Positions 1 through 17,089 of a stretch of 18,486 nt of DNA are shown here, piece after piece. Position numbers and translations under genes: made by a program. This DNA comes from Promethearchaeota archaeon (lineage in GTDB: Archaea; Asgardarchaeota; Lokiarchaeia; Sigyniarchaeales; SOKP01). Where the stretch lies: contig JBHLPW010000008.1 of NCBI GenBank assembly GCA_048939015.1, positions 1 to 18,486 of the forward strand, in the 5' to 3' direction. The notes beneath the pieces are model-generated. The model saw nothing but the letters and a program-made list of their open reading frames with translations. It did not search any database and was not told where the DNA came from. Position 1 is the first letter of the stretch. Every line of letters starts with the position of its first letter.

Positions 1-506
1 CCTATAGTTCCAGAAGCCCCTCTGATTAGTACTGTTTGTCCTTTCTGAATATTTGCTTTTCTAAGATAGTGCAATGCTTCAAGTCCACCAGTAGGAACTG
101 CAGCTGCTTCCTCATAACTCATATTATCTGGCTTTATAAGGATAATCCCGTCTTCAGGTAAACATACATACTCAGCATAAGCCCCGAAATTAAAACCTGT
201 AGAAGCAAAAATTGGGTTACCTTTCTTAAATAGCTTTACCCCACTACCTACTGATTCAATTTCTCCAGCTAATTCCTGTCCAAGTATATTATGTTTTTTT
301 CTTGGTCTCCTGAAACCTATTCCAAGGCGCATAAGGAATTTCAACCAGCCAGAGAATTTGAGACTTCGCATCTCACAATCACCCATTGTTACAGTTGTCG
401 CATGTATCTTTACCAGAATTTCATTTTCTTTTGGAGTAGGTTTTGCTACTTCTTTAAGCTGAAGAACATCTGGAGGCCCATATTTAGTGCATATAATGGC
501 TTTTAT
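1..506 (-). CDS. Zinc-independent MDR-family NAD(P)-dependent oxidoreductase (alcohol dehydrogenase/quinone reductase-like), N-terminal part; runs off the left edge; apparent ATA start
   Basis: Not in the ORF track. Manual translation of the minus strand from 506 gives [43 protein letters not shown]...[14 protein letters not shown]...[12 protein letters not shown]...[37 protein letters not shown]..., open to position 1 and colinear with the three adjacent paralogs. GGTGA lies 7 nt upstream of the ATA. Confidence 0.92.
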
Positions 507-580
507 GAACTCATCACCTATTATCGTTTTTATTAATTATATTTTATCTAAAGTTTATTAATTATAATAACAATCACTGT

Positions 581-1552
581 TTATTCTTCCATAATTATCG
601 CTATTTTTCCTTTGTGGTGGCCCTCTTCAAAATATCGAAAAGCATCAGGAACCTTACTTAAGGGATAGCGTTTATCTATAACAGGGACTACTTTACCAGT
701 TTTAAGTAGATCAAGAATACAACTAACATCTTCTTCTTTGTTAGATCTCCAAGCAGCAATACTCATTTTCTTACTCCCAAATAAAGAAATAAACGGTCCA
801 AGGAATATTACTTGGAGAATTGCCTTCCCAGAGCCTCCCACCATTTTATAAATTCCCTTGGGGTTCAAACAACGCTTATAATCGAAAATTGAATGATGAG
901 CTTGCATATCAAGGATCATATCATATCGTTTTCCACTCTTTGTGAAATCTTCTTGAGTATAATCAATGACATGATCAGCACCAATCGAGTGTAGCATATC
1001 TAATTTCTCCGAATTATCTACAGCAGTAACCTCTGCTCCAAAGTATTTAGCAATCTGCACCGCATAAGAACCCATCCCTCCTCCTGCTCCATTAATTAAA
1101 ACTTTTTGTTCTGGCTTAAACCTTAGAATCTGTTTCTTATTCCGAAGACCTTGAATTGCTGCGACTGCCGATTGAGGTATTGTTGCTGCTTCCTCAAAAG
1201 TTAAATTCTCTGGTTTCAGTCTTAAAAATTCCTCAGGAACACATACATACTCAGCGAAGGCACCATGACTTACTAATGAAGTATCCCCAAATACTTCATC
1301 ACCCTTCTTAAATTGCTTTATATTCTTACCAATTTCATGAACTTTCCCAGCTAAGTCGGTTCCAAGTATCGGGAATCTAGGTTTGCGCATAAAAGGTTGC
1401 ATTTTGCCTCTCATTATTTCAACGTCCATCGAATTTAGAGAAGATGCATGAATCTTTACCAGCACTTCATTTTCACGAGGAGTAGGTGTCTCGACCTCTT
1501 CGAGTTTAAGAACATCTGGAGATCCAAATTTGGGGCATACAATTGCTTTCAT
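581..1552 (-). CDS. Zinc-independent MDR-family NAD(P)-dependent oxidoreductase
   Basis: [27 protein letters not shown] start, GTDLAG, GAFAEYV, Rossmann motif GAGGGMG, GADHVIDY, C-terminal GHHKGKIAI. No catalytic Zn Cys/His (GHE) motif. Confidence 0.95.
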   Translation of the reverse strand: MKAIVCPKFGSPDVLKLEEVETPTPRENEVLVKIHASSLNSMDVEIMRGKMQPFMRKPRFPILGTDLAGKVHEIGKNIKQFKKGDEVFGDTSLVSHGAFAEYVCVPEEFLRLKPENLTFEEAATIPQSAVAAIQGLRNKKQILRFKPEQKVLINGAGGGMGSYAVQIAKYFGAEVTAVDNSEKLDMLHSIGADHVIDYTQEDFTKSGKRYDMILDMQAHHSIFDYKRCLNPKGIYKMVGGSGKAILQVIFLGPFISLFGSKKMSIAAWRSNKEEDVSCILDLLKTGKVVPVIDKRYPLSKVPDAFRYFEEGHHKGKIAIIMEE

Positions 1553-1554
1553 GA

Positions 1555-2481
1555 TTACTTTACTACTGTTATTACTACATTTCCTTTCTTATGTCCTTGA
1601 TCAACATAAGTATGAGCCTCGACAATTTGTTCCATTGGAAATGTTATATCTATAGCTGGTTTTAAATTACCTTCCTCAATAATCTCTTTTAGAAAAATTA
1701 AGTCTTCAGTAATTTCCTTTGTCGGAGATTTACTTGTAAGATAAGTTCCATCTTCCTTTAAAGCTCTTTTGCAATGTGAAGAAGAAATCTTACCTACGGC
1801 CTCAAAAACTACATCATAAATCGGACCACTATCGGTAAAATCCTCTTTTGTATAATCTATTACTTTATCAGCTCCCAGATTTTTCACCCAATCCAAATGG
1901 TTAGTACTGCACACAGCGGTAACTTCAGCCCCAAAATACTTAGCAAGCTGCACTGCAAAGGAACCTAAACTTCCAGAAGCACCATAAATAAGAACCTTTT
2001 GACCCTTCTGAATATCTGCCTTTTTAAGTATATATAGTGCAGTCATTGCCCCAATTGGGACGGCAGCGGCTTCCTCATACGATATATTGGCTGGTTTTAT
2101 TGCAACCACCCCTTGTTTCCATTCTTCAGGTAAACATACATATTCGGCATAAGCACCAAATTTCAATCCTGTGGTAGTTCCAAAAACTTGGTCACCTTTC
2201 TTAAATAATGTTACATTCTTTCCAACTTCTTCAACTTCCCCTGCTAACTCATATCCTAATATATTTCTTCTTGGTTTTCTGATACCAAATACTAATCTTG
2301 AAGCGAAAGTAAAAAAGTTGGAATCTGGGTGTTTACCGCTTCGAGCAACCATCACCCCAAATGATATTGTTGTTGCATGGACTTTTACCAGTAGTTCATT
2401 GTCCTTTGGAGTAGGCTTTTCTATTTCTGTTAGCTTAAGAACTTCTGGAGGTCCATATTTTTCATACACTACTGCTTTCAT
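1555..2481 (-). CDS. Zinc-independent MDR-family NAD(P)-dependent oxidoreductase
   Basis: [52 protein letters not shown]. The start overlaps the stop of the upstream paralog (ATGA). Confidence 0.95.
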
Positions 2482-3440
2482 GATTCTTTTACCACCGTTA
2501 TTACGACATTTCCCTTTTTATGCCCTTTATCAACATACCTATGAGCTTCAACTATTTGTTCCCATGAATATGTTCTGTCTATAGCAGATTTTAGTTTTCC
2601 CTCTTCAACAAGCTCTTTTAGGAGTATAAAATCATCATATTTTATTTGTTTACTATCACCCGAATCCTTATTCACATTCAAATAGATTCCTTTCTCCTTC
2701 AACAATTTTTTGCATTTCGAAGGCGAAGCTTTTCCAACGGCATCAAACACAACGTCATATAACTCACCACTTTGAGTAAAATCTTCTTTAGTATAATCAA
2801 TTACCCTATCAGCACCTAACGATTTCACCATTTCTAAATTAGTGGTACTACAAACTCCAGTGACCTCTGCCCCAAAGTACTTAGCAAGCTGCACCGAAAA
2901 GGTACCTACACTTCCAGACGCACCATAGATAAGTACTTTTTGTCCCTTCTGGATATTACCTTTTCTTATTACAGTTAATGCCGTTAACCCCCCACCAGCA
3001 ACAGGAGCAGCTTCTCCGAAAGTCATATTAGCTGGTTTTGGTGCTACAATCCCATCCTTCGAAAATCTTCCTTTTTCAGTTTCTTCAGGAAAACAAATAT
3101 ACTCAGCGTAACCTCCAAAACGGAATCCTGGAGTCGCAAAAACCTGATCTCCTTTTTTAAACTTTCTTACTTTTTGTCCTATTTCTTCAACTTCCCCTGC
3201 TAGCTCGAGTCCTAGTATCTTTACTTTTTTTGGTCCTTTTAACCCGAATGATAATCGTGCGAAAAAAGTTACCAAGGGATTGAATCGAGTAAAACCATTT
3301 CGAAAAGTCCAATCGCCTTTTGTGACTGTTGTTGCATGGATCTTAACGAGCACTTCGTTTTCTTTTGGTATAGGTTTTTCAACCTCCATCATCTTCAATA
3401 CTTCAGGAGGACCATATTTTTCATATACTATAGCTTTCAT
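2478..3440 (-). CDS. Zinc-independent MDR-family NAD(P)-dependent oxidoreductase
   Basis: [52 protein letters not shown]. Start placed at ATG 3440 by alignment to paralogs; the track's GTG at 3470 would add 10 aa. Confidence 0.95.
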
Positions 3441-3523
3441 TTTTTTACTATTTTTTTCCATTTTTTTCACTATTTTGTTTATATTCTATGAGGTATTAAT
3501 CATTAATTATAGAATTATACTGG

Positions 3524-9252: not shown

Positions 9253-12200
9253 ATGATTAAGAAAAAAACAAAACTAAACCGATTCTTAATTTTATGCACA
9301 ATTTCAATATTAATTCTTATTGTTAATAATATTTTTACGAGTCAATCCAACCTAGGTTTAATAGAGGGGAGTAATAAGTTAAAAGATGAAAATTTGACTA
9401 AAAAATCATTACAACCACTGATAAGTCAACTTCCTGAAGATGTGGGAGGATATAACTCGTTAAATATTGCTAATTTTAAAACTCTAGAGAACGCATCAAG
9501 CACTATTTATAAAAGAGATTTTTTAGCAAATGAAAGTAATTATTTCAACATCACTACACCACAAGCTTGGAATGCTTCATCTATGCAGTTTACTGTTGAT
9601 CCTTATTCTAAAAAACAAATCATTCAAGATCCCAATTTTCAATCAGAATATGAAGGTGGACCTCAATATTGGGATGAAGAAAAAGTAGATAGTGGATTCG
9701 GATATTTTAGTCAATATAGTTTAGAAAGTTATCCTTATGGAATAACACATATATATAATTTAAAAGAAAGAGATTATCCAGGATTTTATCAAGGTGACCA
9801 TGCTTATTGGACGCAGGAATGTATCGATTTAAATCCTGAAGATAAGGATATTAAAAAAGGGAAAATAATACAAGAAAAAGATGAACAAGTTAGAGATTTC
9901 GATAATTTCGAAACTGATCCATCCTTTTATAAGGATTTAGATACCCCTTATGGTGGTGAATATGATCCGATCTGGGATGTGGTTGATCTCTATTACGATG
10001 AATCGATAACAAGCCTTAGCGTATTGATAGAGCCTAGTCGTACCTCACTAGGTGGTAATCCTTCAGCAGCTTGGTGGTATTACATTATTGCTCCATATGA
10101 AATTGATTATGCTCAGATAAAAATAACTTGGAATATTGACGAAGCTTCTTCTTTTGAGGCAGAAGATGAATATGAAGTAATTGCACGAATTAATAATAAA
10201 TATATTGATGGAAGGAATCCTATTGCTGAGAGTGGAGAAGATATACCATTTAATGGTTCCAGTACAGCTTTAATGGTATATGATAATCCAGAAGTTTCTG
10301 GGCATATCCGTCATGGCACAGTATCAAGAACATATAATATAACAGACTTAATTGATGGGCTAATAGGAATAAATAAGTTTGATTTTGGTGTGTGGGCTAA
10401 AAATCCTAGTCATTTAGGGGATGAAGATTTAATTCTTGCAAATTTTGAATCAATAGAGATTATGTTTAATACAACAACTAAATATGAGGTTGCTAGTCTA
10501 GGTTATAGATATAAATTAATTGATGCTGATGCATCTGGTAGTAATCCATTTTTATTAAGTAATGATGCATCTCTCTTTTTATATCTAAGAGATATGGATA
10601 CAGACCAAGAAGAGTTAATTAGAGTTCTTCCATTCTCAATTACAACGATAAGCTACAAAGATTTTAGTGATAGTCCGTGGATTAACATGAATTTTAGTAT
10701 TTCTGATAAGTACCAAGAGTTTTTAAAAGCTGACAGATTAGAGTTTAAAATTGGAGTATATTTTGAAAATGATTTCTATGATAGGAGTAATTACTATCAT
10801 TTTATTGACAATGTTACATTCAGAATAAACTACGACCAATCTGTAACAAATCCCCAATTAAGAATAAGAGTAGATAACTCTCCTACATGGGAAAATGTGA
10901 CAAATAGCATATATACAATAAATACCTCTAATTGGTTGAGTGGAGACCCTCACAGTTTTCAATTCACCACATTTAATCTAAGTTATCAAAATAGATTATA
11001 TCTTAATGTAAAATCAGATTTAGAGCTTAATTATATCAATGATATTTCAAATGGAGCTAAAGCAAGCTATTATATACGAGGAGCAAATTCTTCAAAAGGA
11101 ATGTGGAACGTTACCTATGATAATACGATTTCATATACTTATCTTTTATTGGAGAATTTCAGTCCATCTTTTAATTTATCATCTTATTCTATATCATTTT
11201 TAGACATGCCAGCTTTCGATTTTAAAGGTTCTAATAGTTCTAATTGGGAAATTTTAAACGCAATTTCACCTGACTTAGAGGATTTTTCTTCTAATTTAGT
11301 TAGGTACAATTATTCAGAATTTTCTAATAATCAGAGTGCTTTAATTTCAGGAGCTTATAGATTAGGAAATTGGTCAGTTCAAGGAACTCAACCAAATTAT
11401 ATAACTGACTTTGTTCTCAATGCATCAGACACTTATTTAGGACTACCCCAGTACTACACAGATGAGATTGTACAATACAATTTTTCTGTTTTAGAATCCA
11501 CTAATGGCTACTATTCTATTGCGTTATACAATAGTACTGGGGCTCTTATGAGTGAATTTCCACAACATTTTGCATCTAGTGGATCGACCGTTATAGGAAC
11601 AATAGATCTTGCTGAAAAGTATGGTGTTGGTCAATATTACCTTTATGTTAAATGGAATGATACTACTTCTTTTCCTGGAAGAGTATTAAGGTTAGGTTCA
11701 ACCATTCAAAGTTTTGTTATTTTTAATAATTCTTATGCTCAATTTACCAAATTAACTTCTCAAGTTGATTCTGGACTAACTGCGGAATTCGCTCTTAACT
11801 ATACTACCTATAAAGGTTGGGGTATTCCGGATGCCACCATTTTAGTGTTGGAAAACTCAACAGGAAATTTAAAATTTTGGGGAGTAGCTTGGTCAGGTGC
11901 TTATCAAGTTGGAGAGATCACCTATAAAGGAAATGGGAATTATTCTATTCCACTTAAAACAACTTTGACCCCTAATGGAACTTACTCCTTGTTTTTTTAC
12001 GTTTCAAAATTTCCAAATAAACCCCAAGTTCTTACTACTTCATTAAAGGTAATTGCTGTGAATACATTCGACTTCAACATCACTGAAGGTGCCTACTTAA
12101 ACAATTCTGAGTGGATTATTAATTCTGATAATGTCCCTTACGTGAATGATACTATAAATAGTGTTATTAGAATTAACTTAACAGATTCTGGAATCCCAAT

Positions 12201-15036
12201 TACAGGAGGCTCAGTTATAGGTCATATCGGAGAATCAGAGAGCTTTTTTGAAGCTCAAGAAATTGGGTATGGATTATATGATTTAACTCTTGACACTACA
12301 GGCTTTAATGCAACACAAAAAATTGATAATAAATATATTGAAAATAAAACACTGGAAATCCGATGTAGTGCAGGTGGATACAATCTTCTCCAAGAATATG
12401 TTACGATTTTTATAGATAAAATACCAACAACTATCACACTCCAAAATATTGAAAATGTATATGAAGAAGGAATTATTACGGCAAGTTCTATAATGGAAAA
12501 TCATATAGATTCATCAAATCCCCAACCCAATAATCATGGGAGTTTAAAATATTATATCTTTAATGAGACTTCTGAAAAATTAAACGGATCTTTAGATTTT
12601 CTTCTAAATGGTGTATATCAAAAAGATATCTCTTTATCAGGCCTTTCAGCAGGAGAATATAGCATATATATTAATGGAACTGCTTTTAATTGCGAAAATA
12701 GTAAAAGCAATGTTATTAATTTTACAATATTAGCACAATTTACTACAAATCTAGAAATAAATGTTCCAGAAACATTAAGAATATCAAAGGAATTCCAAAT
12801 TAAAACAACATTAAGTTATGCTATAAATGGTACACCGATTCAAGGTCAGACTATCTATCTAAACATCTCAATTGGCCAAGAGGAAAGTTTCCTTGTAACT
12901 ACTACTACGGATTCTCTAGGAATTAGTACTTATAATTATATAATCTCCTCACAATTTAAAGACCTGAACATTACTATTGAAGCTATTTATCAAGGTCAAC
13001 AAAAAATAGCTGCTTCACATAATAGTATTACTAAGACAATTTATGGCAAATTACCTATTCAAATGGAAATATATGATTTTCCAAGTGTTATAAGAGTAGG
13101 TTACTCTGCAACATACGGTTTAAGAATAAATATAAGTGATAGTGGAGAAACTCTCCAAAACAAAGTGATTCTTTTTTCAGCTTATTATAATGAAGATTTT
13201 ACTAGCCCCATTATCACCTTTTTACTTTATACGGACGTTGTCGGTCAATGTGAGTACACAATAACAGAAATAGAGGATAAAAATGATAATATCACTGTTT
13301 ATTTTGAATACCTTGGTTCAACCACTCTATCATATAATATAACATCAAGGATGGATATAATCGTACCAAAATGGAGTTCAAATTTTACTGTTCACCCCTT
13401 ACCAAGTATAATCCGTCATGGCCAAACTATCGAATTCGATATGTCATTTTCATGTGAAAATACTTCTATTACCTTACAGGATCTACCTGTTCATTTTATT
13501 TTTAATTATGAAGGAACAACAGAGATCTATACAACAATAATATCAATAAATAATACTTTGGTTTATTTATATCAAGTTGCTGATTCATTTAATGGTAACT
13601 TAAACTGTTCTATTATTTTCGAAGGTACTAACAGAATAGCAGGGGTTTCACTAAATTTCAGTTTAGTTATTAACCCAAAATCAATAGTTCAGCTTTCATT
13701 TATAGATACTATACTAACTCAATACATGCAAGGCTCTCACTCCTTTCATATATCAGTTGAAAATGAATTGGGAGAACTGTTAGATGGATTATTAATACGA
13801 TTTCAAATTATAAATAATAACGGAGAAGAAATCTCTAACTATACTGCTATCTGTGAAAACGGAATTGCTGTAGGATCCTTAGATCTGCCATTAGGTAATA
13901 ATTATAGGATTCGAGTCCAATTTCTTGCTGAAAGTTACTATGAAGGAGCAATTATAACTTCAGAGAGAATACGTGTAGTAAATGAATTGATTATTTTTTT
14001 AGATTATTTGCCATACATATTATTAGCTTTAGGTATTACAGCTGCTACTTTATTTACCGTATATCGGGCTGTCATTGTCCCTAGAAGACGAAGGAGAATT
14101 GAATCTTTAAAATTGCTTTATCAAAAGCTATCTGATGTAGAAAATCTTCAGTACTTAATCGTTTTGACTAAAGATGGGGGTGTACCTTGTTATAGTAAAA
14201 GCCTAGCAGATGTCCCAATTGATGAAACTCTTGTTTCTGGATTTTTAAGTGCCATATCTACTTTTGGTACAGAGATAGGAAAAAAAATTCAGGAAGGAGA
14301 AGGAGGTTTGGAAGAATTATCATACCGACAATTTAAAATTATAATCAATGAAGGAAAATTTATAAGAGTCGCACTACTTCTTTTAAAACGTCCTAGTGAG
14401 TCTTTGAAAGTAAAGTTAAGAAATTTTAATAAAATGTTCGAAGAAGTATACGAGAGTGAACTAAAAAGTTTCTCCGGACAAGTTTTTGATGATATTGCTG
14501 TTACTAAATTGATTGAAGATGTTTTTGAGGCTGATCTTTTATATCCTCATCAGGTTATTGAAACTAAAGTAGATGGCTATATGAAATCTTCTACATCAAA
14601 CAATATTGATAAAAAAATTATAATTATTGCACGAGGAGAAGAGTTTGAATCTAATTTTTACTTAAGAGATATAATAAATCATCTTAAAACAAAAGGGATT
14701 GAAGAAATCAAATCTTTTGATAGCATACAGAAAATGAAACAGGATAAAATTGTATTTGCTATTAACCCAAGAACTAATTACCTCATTGAAGATTTTAAAA
14801 GGTATATAAAACACATGAACTCTAATGATAGAAATGTCCTATTTGCAATTTTCGATGGTAATAATGATATTTTGAGTATCAGAAAGTATATGAAAAAAGC
14901 TAATATGTATGTACCCACAGATATTCATCAAATTGTTGAGAAATTGAGAAGATTACATTTGATAGATGAGGTAAATCGGATTAATGAACAAGGTAGTGCA
15001 ATTGCTACACTGTTAAAATTAATACCAGATTTATAA
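9253..15036 (+). CDS. Giant single-pass cell-surface protein: signal/anchor, beta-rich jelly-roll and Ig-like ectodomain, TM helix, cytoplasmic longin-like domain and two winged-helix-like domains
   Basis: N-terminal KKKTK + hydrophobic stretch; many N-x-S/T sequons in the first ~1570 aa; ~100-aa repeats with TDxxG and Y/F-x-G motifs; TM at ~aa 1586-1609 followed by RRRRR; then LQYLIVLTKDGGVPCYSKSL...DETLVSGFLSAISTFGTEI...LEELSYRQFKIIINEGKFIRVALLL, the typical Asgard longin pattern. Confidence 0.85.
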   Translation: MIKKKTKLNRFLILCTISILILIVNNIFTSQSNLGLIEGSNKLKDENLTKKSLQPLISQLPEDVGGYNSLNIANFKTLENASSTIYKRDFLANESNYFNITTPQAWNASSMQFTVDPYSKKQIIQDPNFQSEYEGGPQYWDEEKVDSGFGYFSQYSLESYPYGITHIYNLKERDYPGFYQGDHAYWTQECIDLNPEDKDIKKGKIIQEKDEQVRDFDNFETDPSFYKDLDTPYGGEYDPIWDVVDLYYDESITSLSVLIEPSRTSLGGNPSAAWWYYIIAPYEIDYAQIKITWNIDEASSFEAEDEYEVIARINNKYIDGRNPIAESGEDIPFNGSSTALMVYDNPEVSGHIRHGTVSRTYNITDLIDGLIGINKFDFGVWAKNPSHLGDEDLILANFESIEIMFNTTTKYEVASLGYRYKLIDADASGSNPFLLSNDASLFLYLRDMDTDQEELIRVLPFSITTISYKDFSDSPWINMNFSISDKYQEFLKADRLEFKIGVYFENDFYDRSNYYHFIDNVTFRINYDQSVTNPQLRIRVDNSPTWENVTNSIYTINTSNWLSGDPHSFQFTTFNLSYQNRLYLNVKSDLELNYINDISNGAKASYYIRGANSSKGMWNVTYDNTISYTYLLLENFSPSFNLSSYSISFLDMPAFDFKGSNSSNWEILNAISPDLEDFSSNLVRYNYSEFSNNQSALISGAYRLGNWSVQGTQPNYITDFVLNASDTYLGLPQYYTDEIVQYNFSVLESTNGYYSIALYNSTGALMSEFPQHFASSGSTVIGTIDLAEKYGVGQYYLYVKWNDTTSFPGRVLRLGSTIQSFVIFNNSYAQFTKLTSQVDSGLTAEFALNYTTYKGWGIPDATILVLENSTGNLKFWGVAWSGAYQVGEITYKGNGNYSIPLKTTLTPNGTYSLFFYVSKFPNKPQVLTTSLKVIAVNTFDFNITEGAYLNNSEWIINSDNVPYVNDTINSVIRINLTDSGIPITGGSVIGHIGESESFFEAQEIGYGLYDLTLDTTGFNATQKIDNKYIENKTLEIRCSAGGYNLLQEYVTIFIDKIPTTITLQNIENVYEEGIITASSIMENHIDSSNPQPNNHGSLKYYIFNETSEKLNGSLDFLLNGVYQKDISLSGLSAGEYSIYINGTAFNCENSKSNVINFTILAQFTTNLEINVPETLRISKEFQIKTTLSYAINGTPIQGQTIYLNISIGQEESFLVTTTTDSLGISTYNYIISSQFKDLNITIEAIYQGQQKIAASHNSITKTIYGKLPIQMEIYDFPSVIRVGYSATYGLRINISDSGETLQNKVILFSAYYNEDFTSPIITFLLYTDVVGQCEYTITEIEDKNDNITVYFEYLGSTTLSYNITSRMDIIVPKWSSNFTVHPLPSIIRHGQTIEFDMSFSCENTSITLQDLPVHFIFNYEGTTEIYTTIISINNTLVYLYQVADSFNGNLNCSIIFEGTNRIAGVSLNFSLVINPKSIVQLSFIDTILTQYMQGSHSFHISVENELGELLDGLLIRFQIINNNGEEISNYTAICENGIAVGSLDLPLGNNYRIRVQFLAESYYEGAIITSERIRVVNELIIFLDYLPYILLALGITAATLFTVYRAVIVPRRRRRIESLKLLYQKLSDVENLQYLIVLTKDGGVPCYSKSLADVPIDETLVSGFLSAISTFGTEIGKKIQEGEGGLEELSYRQFKIIINEGKFIRVALLLLKRPSESLKVKLRNFNKMFEEVYESELKSFSGQVFDDIAVTKLIEDVFEADLLYPHQVIETKVDGYMKSSTSNNIDKKIIIIARGEEFESNFYLRDIINHLKTKGIEEIKSFDSIQKMKQDKIVFAINPRTNYLIEDFKRYIKHMNSNDRNVLFAIFDGNNDILSIRKYMKKANMYVPTDIHQIVEKLRRLHLIDEVNRINEQGSAIATLLKLIPDL

Positions 15037-15306: not shown

Positions 15307-15972
15307 TTATTCCATTATTAACTTTTTCCTTTGAATTCCTTTTTCCCGTAAGTAATTAGCTATATACCAACCGAGAAAGCCGCCCATAACTCCCTGAATA
15401 ATTGAATATGGTATCATAAAATATCCGTGTGTGAGAAAATCATCAACTCCTGGGACTGATAAGCCTTTTTTATAGAAAGTTGCACCCGCTAAAATACTTA
15501 ATAAGATGATGCTAATTGAAGAGATTAAAGAGGATACTAGAATTGCTTTTCTTTCATTTCTAGCAGGTTTAAGTAACCATAGTGAAAGATCGATAGACAA
15601 TCCATAACCAACATAGATTAAAGCCCAATATAAAGCACCAAAAGGAGACTTTAAAGTATTCTCAATCTGCCATTCTATTATCAATTCAATAGGAATTCCT
15701 ATGAGCCCATTTATTCCAAAAAGAAAAGTAGCTGTACCTTTTGTCTTCAAGTTAACTACAAAGAAATAGGTTACCATCATTAGAAAAATCAATACAAAAT
15801 AAATGTAAATATAACCAATATCTAACCATACTATGTCAAAAAATACAGTAAAAATACCTGTTAAGACAGCTATAAGCATGAAACCGATTATATTCAATCC
15901 AAAGGATCGTTTAGTCCAAGGCTTATACCAACCTAAATTTTGACTTTGATTCAAAATAATTAATTCTTTCAA
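15307..15972 (-). CDS. Integral membrane protein resembling an ECF transporter substrate-specific (S) component
   Basis: About 6 TM helices, 'LKTKGTATFLFGINGLI' and C-terminal 'GVMGGFLGWYIANYLREKGI', both similar to S-component patterns. Start likely TTG 15972 (GGAGGT 7 nt upstream) or ATG 15987; the extension to 16212 is considered spurious. Confidence 0.6.
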   Translation of the reverse strand: MKELIILNQSQNLGWYKPWTKRSFGLNIIGFMLIAVLTGIFTVFFDIVWLDIGYIYIYFVLIFLMMVTYFFVVNLKTKGTATFLFGINGLIGIPIELIIEWQIENTLKSPFGALYWALIYVGYGLSIDLSLWLLKPARNERKAILVSSLISSISIILLSILAGATFYKKGLSVPGVDDFLTHGYFMIPYSIIQGVMGGFLGWYIANYLREKGIQRKKLIME

Positions 15973-16056
15973 CTTTTTTACCTCCATTAATTTTTTTTTA
16001 AGTTTGTATGAAAAACAGGATAAAATTTCACAGTTTTTCTTACGTATTGCGAGAAA

Positions 16057-16135
16057 TTTGAAATATTTAAAGTCTGTGGCGATTTCAAACCGAAAAATGG
16101 GACATAAGTTTTGAAAAAAATGTACAGTTTCAAAA
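16057..16135. promoter_or_regulatory. Candidate operator palindromes in the divergent promoter region
   Basis: TTTGAAAT-N17-ATTTCAAA (16057-16089) and TTTTGAAA-N11-TTTCAAAA (16109-16135) share the TTTGAAA half-site, directly upstream of a regulator gene. Confidence 0.35.
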
Positions 16136-16150
16136 AAATAATTAAGGAAA

Positions 16151-17089
16151 ATGGACAATAATTTAGTAATACTAAAAAATGAGAACAACCTGAAAATGGA
16201 CGATAAAGACATCGAAATTCTAAAGATGCTGCTCTTTGATGGAAGAATGACTTATGAATCAATTGCGAAGAAATTTAAATTAAGTCCCTACTTAGTCAAA
16301 AAGAGGATTAATAACCTTGTAGATCTGGGAGTAATAATGAAATTTACAACAAATTTAAATTTTTTAATGTTTCAAAAATCAGTATGTTATACACTTGCTG
16401 ATATAAAGCAAGGTGTTGATCAGCAAGAACTAATTGAACGCATTGGAAAGTTGGATGAGGTTACCGGAGGGGCGATCTCTCTCCAAAATAAGATGCAAAT
16501 TATACATACATATTCTGATGATTATGAATTCAAAGAAAACCTTGAAAAATTGATGCAATTCGAAGAAATTGAAAGCATTGAAAATTTTATTTTGCTTATT
16601 CCTCCCTCTTTAGGCTTTAAAAATGAAAAGTTAACCAAAACTGATTGGAAAATAATTAATGTTATTAAAGATGACTGTAGAAAGACCGATATAGAGATCG
16701 CTGATGAAATAGGAGTCTCAACTAAAACAGTTACAAGAAGATTAAAGTATCTAAGGGAAAATAATATAATTCTTTTCATGATTGACCTTGATACAAGTGC
16801 TGCTGATTTCCTATCGTACCTCTTAATAGTAAAATTTCAAAAGATTGCGTCTGATTCTTTTAATGAAGTGATAAAAGTAGTAAAAAATTATTTTTATGTT
16901 TGGAGAGTTGCTAACGAAGAAGCTTTCATCTTTACCATTTTCATTGATAAATTAAGAGAAATTGATGAACAAGTCAAAGAAATTGAAAAAATTCCATATG
17001 TTAAAGAAGTAATCAGTTTTGTACCAACAAAAATGTTCTATTTTGAGAATTGGTTGGATAAATTAATTAAAAGAAATGCAGTCGACTAA
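16151..17089 (+). CDS. Tandem (double) Lrp/AsnC-family transcriptional regulator
   Basis: Two HTH units, MDDKDIEILKMLLFDGRMTYESIAKKFKLSPYLVKKRINNLVDLGVI and LTKTDWKIINVIKDDCRKTDIEIADEIGVSTKTVTRRLKYLRENNII, each followed by a RAM-like alpha/beta domain. Alternative start ATG 16196. Confidence 0.88.
   Translation: MDNNLVILKNENNLKMDDKDIEILKMLLFDGRMTYESIAKKFKLSPYLVKKRINNLVDLGVIMKFTTNLNFLMFQKSVCYTLADIKQGVDQQELIERIGKLDEVTGGAISLQNKMQIIHTYSDDYEFKENLEKLMQFEEIESIENFILLIPPSLGFKNEKLTKTDWKIINVIKDDCRKTDIEIADEIGVSTKTVTRRLKYLRENNIILFMIDLDTSAADFLSYLLIVKFQKIASDSFNEVIKVVKNYFYVWRVANEEAFIFTIFIDKLREIDEQVKEIEKIPYVKEVISFVPTKMFYFENWLDKLIKRNAVD

Follow-up and report, generated by a model that had tools for sequence, protein, structure and literature searches.

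A Lokiarchaeia-type surface protein joining a giant sequon-rich ectodomain to a cytoplasmic longin and winged-helix tail

Locus, layout and membrane topology

The window considered here (the whole 18,486-nucleotide stretch of DNA analysed) carries at 9253..15036 on the + strand the sole long open reading frame (ORF) in that part of the window, encoding 1927 amino acids (aa) plus a stop and preceded by a 277-nt AT-rich spacer with purine-rich AAGGAA/GGGGA 7-18 nt ahead of the ATG. Downstream, window positions 15307-17089 hold a 301-aa ORF on the - strand without a Pfam match and, divergent from it, a 312-aa protein on the + strand with two winged helix-turn-helix (wHTH; HTH_24/AsnC-type) domains; the called 5' ends of these two ORFs share 62 nt, probably because one or both starts are mis-set, and both ORFs are kept solely in the two closest relatives (loci L013 and L014). 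At the other end of the window, positions 1-3470 on the - strand encode a tandem series of at least three zinc-type alcohol dehydrogenase/MDR paralogues upstream of DUF4386 and of an ABC-2 exporter pair, a cluster with no relation to the receptor-like gene. Within the 1927-aa protein the following features were delimited:

9253..9345, + strand: signal peptide or signal anchor (aa 1-31), with a KKKTK n-region, a 14-residue hydrophobic core and a polar c-region
9436..10857, + strand: membrane-distal head (aa 62-535), entirely beta and built from two jelly-roll sandwiches
10858..12432, + strand: middle ectodomain (aa 536-1060), beta-rich, sequon-rich and conserved among orthologues
12433..13974, + strand: membrane-proximal stalk (aa 1061-1574), ~4-5 Ig-like repeats (probably Big_1 / macroglobulin MG) of ~110 aa each
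13975..14079, + strand: transmembrane (TM) helix (aa ~1575-1609), from hydropathy, its position identical in orthologues
14080..14142, + strand: RRRRR stop-transfer and juxtamembrane helix (aa 1610-1630), pI ~10.8, within the predicted dimer interface
14143..14544, + strand: longin domain (aa 1631-1764), beta-beta-alpha-beta-beta-beta-alpha-alpha, with an invariant SGFLSAIxxFG helix
14545..14799, + strand: middle tail unit (aa 1765-1849), helix-strand-helix-helix-strand-wing-strand pattern in the model, a winged-helix-like candidate
14800..15033, + strand: C-terminal winged helix (aa ~1846-1927), near-neutral (median pI 6.7), with a conserved LLKLIPDL end

A hydropathy scan of the whole protein found hydrophobic segments only at aa 6-31 and aa ~1575-1609, the former in a signal region that is poorly conserved in sequence (22% identity among orthologues) yet present in them, and the latter followed directly by RRRRR at aa 1611-1615. 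All 52 of the 52 N-x-S/T sequons lie between these two segments (shuffled sequences give 22.9 +/- 4.2), the 318-aa tail (aa 1610-1927) having none, an asymmetry shared by 25 of 25 aligned orthologues (37-73 sequons outside versus 0-3 in the tail) that, together with the positive-inside rule, supports an N-terminus-out, C-terminus-in orientation. These results bear out the topology proposed in an earlier note on this DNA, namely a sequon-rich beta ectodomain of ~1570 aa (here ~1540 aa), a single TM helix with an RRRRR stop, and a cytoplasmic tail of ~315 aa (here 318 aa). The protein, from a Lokiarchaeia-type Asgard archaeon, is thus a type-I, single-pass surface protein open to heavy N-glycosylation, and it probably bears a sugar coat.

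A lectin-like ectodomain head and a conserved cytoplasmic module

The head was modelled with AF2 at a pLDDT of 89.2, and structural comparison of the model placed the beta-sandwich jelly roll of its residues 147-348 (aa 208-409, nt 9874-10479) on carbohydrate-binding modules (CBMs). The middle ectodomain gave no match in Pfam and PDB sequence searches and contains a single weak internal repeat (~894-936 with ~1006-1057). For the stalk, Pfam matches were frequent among 25 orthologues (Big_1 in 21, with a best E of 1.4e-11; MG4 in 15; Big_3_5 in 12), whereas the stalk of the 1927-aa protein itself gave sub-threshold Pfam matches only (MG4, E 0.0089; Big_1, E 0.26); its internal ~110-aa repeats aligned to each other at offsets of 220 and 330 aa with hhalign probabilities of 94-98%. 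With a jelly-roll head on a probable Big_1/MG stalk, the ectodomain is better described as a lectin-like head on an Ig-like stalk; the previous description of an Ig-like ectodomain probably holds for the membrane-proximal ~500 aa of Big_1/MG-type repeats but not for the CBM-like head. Two longer orthologues, P0007 (2833 aa) and P0191 (2338 aa), carry an extra 400-700-aa N-terminal extension ahead of the conserved head, with WD40/PQQ beta-propeller Pfam matches.

The C-terminus holds a conserved cytoplasmic module that includes a longin domain and a winged helix, arranged from N to C as juxtamembrane helix, longin, winged-helix-like unit and winged helix. Conservation within the protein peaks in the longin (mean identity 58.5% among orthologues, compared with 34-37% for the ectodomain). 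An alignment of 35 orthologue tails served as AF2 input, and the resulting model (pLDDT 82.7, pTM 0.69) comprises a juxtamembrane helix, elements in longin order and then two small helix/strand units. In the model, DSSP assigned E28-35, E41-46, H54-75, E83-87, E90-96, E100-106, H112-134 and H143-159, which is the secondary-structure order of a longin. In the longin fold a five-stranded sheet carries a single helix on one side and a pair on the opposite side; helix packing in the model was judged solely through superposition. Model residues 27-156 superpose on solved longins over the full domain, clearly above background, the closest being Sec22b, TRAPP subunits, AP sigma/mu N-terminal domains and zeta-COP; these residues correspond to the segment at 14143-14530 (aa 1631-1759) for which a longin fold had been suggested from the DNA, and that assignment stands. 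By sequence, neither the whole protein nor the tail searched separately matched a Pfam or NCBIfam family at threshold, including any curated longin or roadblock family, and Robl_LC7 appeared as sub-threshold matches in 5 of the 35 orthologue tails (best E 3.6e-4). When the tail, the full-length alignment and the middle unit were each used as profile queries against PDB sequences, only matches at E >= 0.01 came back (the CheF C-terminal domain, OhrR, FokI D3 and CdvB2); a shape search of the ESM Atlas yielded nothing beyond unannotated Asgard clusters, and a protein-atlas feature search gave scores of 0.79-0.85, to be taken as leads only.

The C-terminal domain shows the helix-strand-helix-helix-strand-wing-strand order (H1-S1-H2-H3-S2-wing-S3) of a winged helix and superposes on solved wHTH domains, with the Rio2 N-terminal wHTH as best fold match. 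The middle unit had no PDB match and no recurrent Pfam family among the 35 orthologues, and fold searches barely covered it, although its secondary-structure pattern fits a winged helix. hhalign detected no homology between the two, so sequence lends no support to a tandem duplication; of the tandem winged-helix module read earlier, the C-terminal half is retained and the middle unit is kept as a candidate.

Two copies of the tail folded together gave an ipSAE of 0.49 (best of 3 controls, 0.00). Among proteins solved as one-chain pairs, 20 of 30 attain this score, against 1 of 23 among those solved as single chains; the counts hold only roughly here, as the run used a custom alignment, and the predictor may also draw on solved longin/roadblock dimers. 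Dimer runs agreed in at least 81% of contacts, with partner pLDDT of at least 81. The cytoplasmic module is thereby predicted to form a symmetric homodimer through the juxtamembrane helix, the conserved PIDETL loop and one helix of the middle unit, an arrangement in which two TM helices would sit side by side.

Compared with known systems, the architecture combines parts that are familiar separately. The eukaryotic longins considered (N-terminal domains of Sec22b, VAMP7 and Ykt6, TRAPP synbindin (TRAPPC4/Trs23), sedlin (TRAPPC2), Bet5, AP sigma/mu and SRX) share 6-15% sequence identity with the tail longin, which has no Pfam Longin match and, in contrast to them, lies behind a TM helix at the cytoplasmic end of a protein with a giant ectodomain. 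In longin SNAREs (VAMP7, Sec22b, Ykt6) the longin is N-terminal and is followed by a SNARE coiled-coil motif and then a C-terminal anchor; here the TM helix precedes the longin, no Synaptobrevin/SNARE Pfam match was found and winged-helix-type units follow. NPRL2/NPRL3 of GATOR1 share with the tail a domain order of longin first and then small helical or winged-helix-like units, although they are soluble and the present protein is membrane-anchored. Foldseek aligned the tail over ~360 columns to putative NPRL2/3 chains of the KICSTOR-GATOR1 entries 9o5a/9o5d at an rmsd of 16.4-16.5 and a TM score of 0.21-0.24, and these chains were absent from the top 50 by Z, which SNARE, TRAPP and AP longins led; the resemblance seen to NPRL2/3 is confined to domain order. 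Giant prokaryotic adhesins and archaeal S-layer glycoproteins share the Sec signal, the sequon-rich beta ectodomain, CBM-like and probable Big_1/MG modules and one C-terminal TM helix, but have at most a short cytoplasmic stub where this protein has a three-domain tail of 318 aa as its most conserved part.

Among Asgard archaea, longin and roadblock eukaryotic signature proteins (ESPs) are described in Klinger 2016 (as cited in PMC4917890), Liu et al. 2021 on asCOGs (bioRxiv 10.1101/2020.10.19.343400) and Tran et al. 2024 (PMC10933270), and structures exist for comparison (PDB 8yqg, 9jue, 9m28). The literature consulted describes Asgard longins that are soluble or fused to GTPase, TRAPPC3, two-component or Vps28/adaptin parts (PMC10933270; PMC4917890; bioRxiv 10.1101/2020.10.19.343400; bioRxiv 10.1101/2024.02.06.579148), and these four sources make no mention of a giant ectodomain-TM-longin-winged-helix protein.

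Orthologues, paralogues and gene neighbourhood

A full HMMER scan of 1.84 billion representatives returned 881 clusters at E <= 1e-3, ~40 of which are proteins of ~1900-2050 aa with the entire tail. Full-length orthologues (the closest at 89-91% identity) are restricted to Lokiarchaeia-type Asgard genomes, among them those of the cultured Promethearchaeum syntrophicum MK-D1 and Lokiarchaeum ossiferum (the latter at locus L036); relatives sharing just the longin come from Hel-, Heimdall-, Hod-, Thor-, Sif- and Atabeyarchaeia. Loci confirmed in GTDB species genomes were Asgard, bar one Deferrimicrobium-labelled and two Bathyarchaeota-labelled contigs (L027, L037 (Bathyarchaeota Bin_245) and L046 (Deferrimicrobium sp., a bacterium)); the family members on these three contigs are likely explained by mis-binning, though they may reflect transfer. 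With a cutoff of E <= 1e-40, the tail turned up in 12 of 301 genomes sampled across the phylum; these belong to two families of one order and include just 3 of the 22 other members of the genus that were sampled, a patchy distribution indicating an accessory gene and not a core-pathway component. Orthologues are annotated as 'hypothetical' or 'Ig-like domain-containing' and, in MK-D1, as 'carbohydrate porin' (P0030 at locus L035, 1953 aa; so labelled in RefSeq and UniRef), a label at odds with the single-pass topology and the longin tail. A divergent orthologue locus, L093:98-6503 (GCA_964413395.1), is split: a 1575-aa ORF with ectodomain, TM helix and basic stop ends where the longin should start, a 188-aa ORF overlapping it by 4 nt matches only tail aa ~1734-1869, and further downstream an intact, separate 320-aa longin/winged-helix protein is encoded (P0055, which shares 28% identity with the tail). 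The receptor at L093 seems to have lost its longin core, with a free copy downstream; alternatively, the split is an assembly frameshift.

A profile HMM of the longin part, searched against the 4.86-Mb genome, identified 40 ORFs with related longins. Three groups were apparent: eight of the 40 (767-2239 aa) have a signal, a large sequon-rich ectodomain, a TM helix, a 23-34-aa spacer and a longin, with ectodomains that differ and a TM-longin junction that is alike; five are multi-pass membrane proteins; and the remainder are soluble. The multi-pass proteins (G000 contigs C31:26574-28754, C10:46406-47716, C10:3382-4701, C24:6595-8247 and C79:12146-14092) have ~5-11 predicted TM helices and, in four of the five, a C-terminal longin, so that in this genome longins have also been joined to polytopic membrane proteins. 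The middle and C-terminal tail units are confined in this genome to the 9253-15036 gene.

The genome totals 88 Ras-family and 17 roadblock matches, and its small GTPases are put at ~90-106 ORFs. Three longin ORFs are soluble ~290-aa fusions to a Ras-like GTPase (C88:5027-5920, C32:73031-73927 and C34:9071-9940) and three more lie within 310 nt of a Ras-like gene, such that 6 of the 40 are fused or adjacent to a GTPase against a 5.5% background (P 0.02, the cases not all being independent). Two soluble ~650-aa proteins with a C-terminal longin (C21:126158-128715 and C120:4638-7457) are 69 and 310 nt, respectively, from Ras-like GTPase genes. No GTPase, roadblock or longin gene was found near the 9253-15036 gene, the nearest GTPase being 47 kb off, and none of the eight type-I paralogues has a GTPase within 6 kb. 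As no GTPase lies close to the gene, coupling to one is a step that we infer. Across 29 orthologous loci, no neighbours were conserved beyond the closest relatives, with the upstream side poorly sampled because the 6-kb upstream flank is largely the gene itself.

Possible functions and significance

Longins are the fold by which eukaryotes dock small GTPases, and they also act in SNARE regulation, coat adaptors and the SRP receptor; a longin fold alone therefore does not show function. The reading we prefer, which may well be right but which we advance tentatively, is that the head binds a glycan or partner surface and that the dimeric longin/winged-helix tail recruits a cytosolic partner, coupling contact to an intracellular response. 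Under this reading, the CBM-like head would bind a glycan or the surface of a partner cell, the predicted tail homodimer would form a longin/winged-helix platform under the membrane, the platform would recruit a cytosolic protein, and surface contact would elicit a local intracellular response (for example, in the cytoskeleton, membrane shaping or sorting). A small GTPase or a roadblock/longin regulator would be the likeliest partner, given the known roles of the superfamily and the GTPase-fused paralogues. A stronger version, which we consider unlikely, is an outside-in receptor in which contact or glycan sensing is passed to a small-GTPase switch via the membrane-anchored dimeric longin, with eight receptors feeding ~90 GTPases; if true, it would represent an Asgard forerunner of the eukaryotic sequence from surface receptor through longin-type GEF/GAP platform to Ras/Arf/Rag-like GTPase.

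Among the alternatives, the one that fares best, although still rather on the unlikely side, is a structural coat or adhesion protein that does not signal, its ectodomain serving as a glycocalyx-like envelope or a grip on syntrophic partners and its tail only oligomerizing or anchoring (for example, by lateral clustering or cytoskeleton attachment). A giant glycosylatable ectodomain with a CBM-like head and an Ig-like stalk is adhesin-like, the tail is predicted to homodimerize, no signalling partner gene is close by, the eight type-I paralogues vary their ectodomains on a constant TM-longin junction, and Lokiarchaeia lack an ordered S-layer yet have many surface proteins (PMC9834061). However, a 318-aa three-domain tail far exceeds the needs of an anchor and is more conserved than the ectodomain, with the longin highest, and elsewhere in the genome related longins are found either fused to GTPases or next to their genes. 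By analogy with AP sigma/mu longins, Sec22b-Sec23/24 and the tandem winged helices of ESCRT-II, the longin tail might instead be a built-in sorting tag that is recognized by, or mimics, coat/adaptor or ESCRT-type machinery and directs the protein to protrusions or shed vesicles; the nearest solved folds are trafficking longins (Sec22b, TRAPP, AP sigma/mu, zeta-COP), a longin followed by winged-helix units resembles NPRL2/3 and ESCRT-II-like modules, and Asgard ESCRT and adaptin-like parts combine with longins (bioRxiv 10.1101/2024.02.06.579148), but we regard this as improbable. More doubtful still is a membrane-tethered transcription regulator whose C-terminal winged helix or helices bind DNA, ToxR/CadC-like or after proteolytic release, with the longin as dimerization or sensor module: the C-terminal winged helix is close to neutral (median pI 6.7; net charge 0, range -4 to +3), its putative recognition helix ranks among the most variable stretches and its conserved residues sit after the wing, its best fold match (the Rio2 N-terminal wHTH) is a protein/RNA-contact module, and no Pfam DNA-binding HTH family was matched at threshold.

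The protein encoded at 9253-15036 sets a known Asgard ESP domain in a new architecture that is real and well supported, and even if the tail merely anchors or clusters, the results put right the annotation of a family that now goes under 'hypothetical', 'Ig-like' or 'carbohydrate porin'. Asgard genomes encode dozens of small GTPases together with longin and roadblock proteins whose inputs are unexplained, as are the 'complex surface proteins' of cultured species, such as those of L. ossiferum cells, which have a single membrane and no ordered S-layer (PMC9834061). Contact-dependent recruitment by the tail, as we favour, would connect the two: a glycan-binding-type ectodomain joined to a longin platform is a testable candidate link from the cell surface and syntrophic partners to eukaryote-like intracellular machinery, and its orthologues in two cultured Lokiarchaeia (P0030 in MK-D1 and the L036 protein in L. 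ossiferum) make pull-downs, localization and structures feasible.
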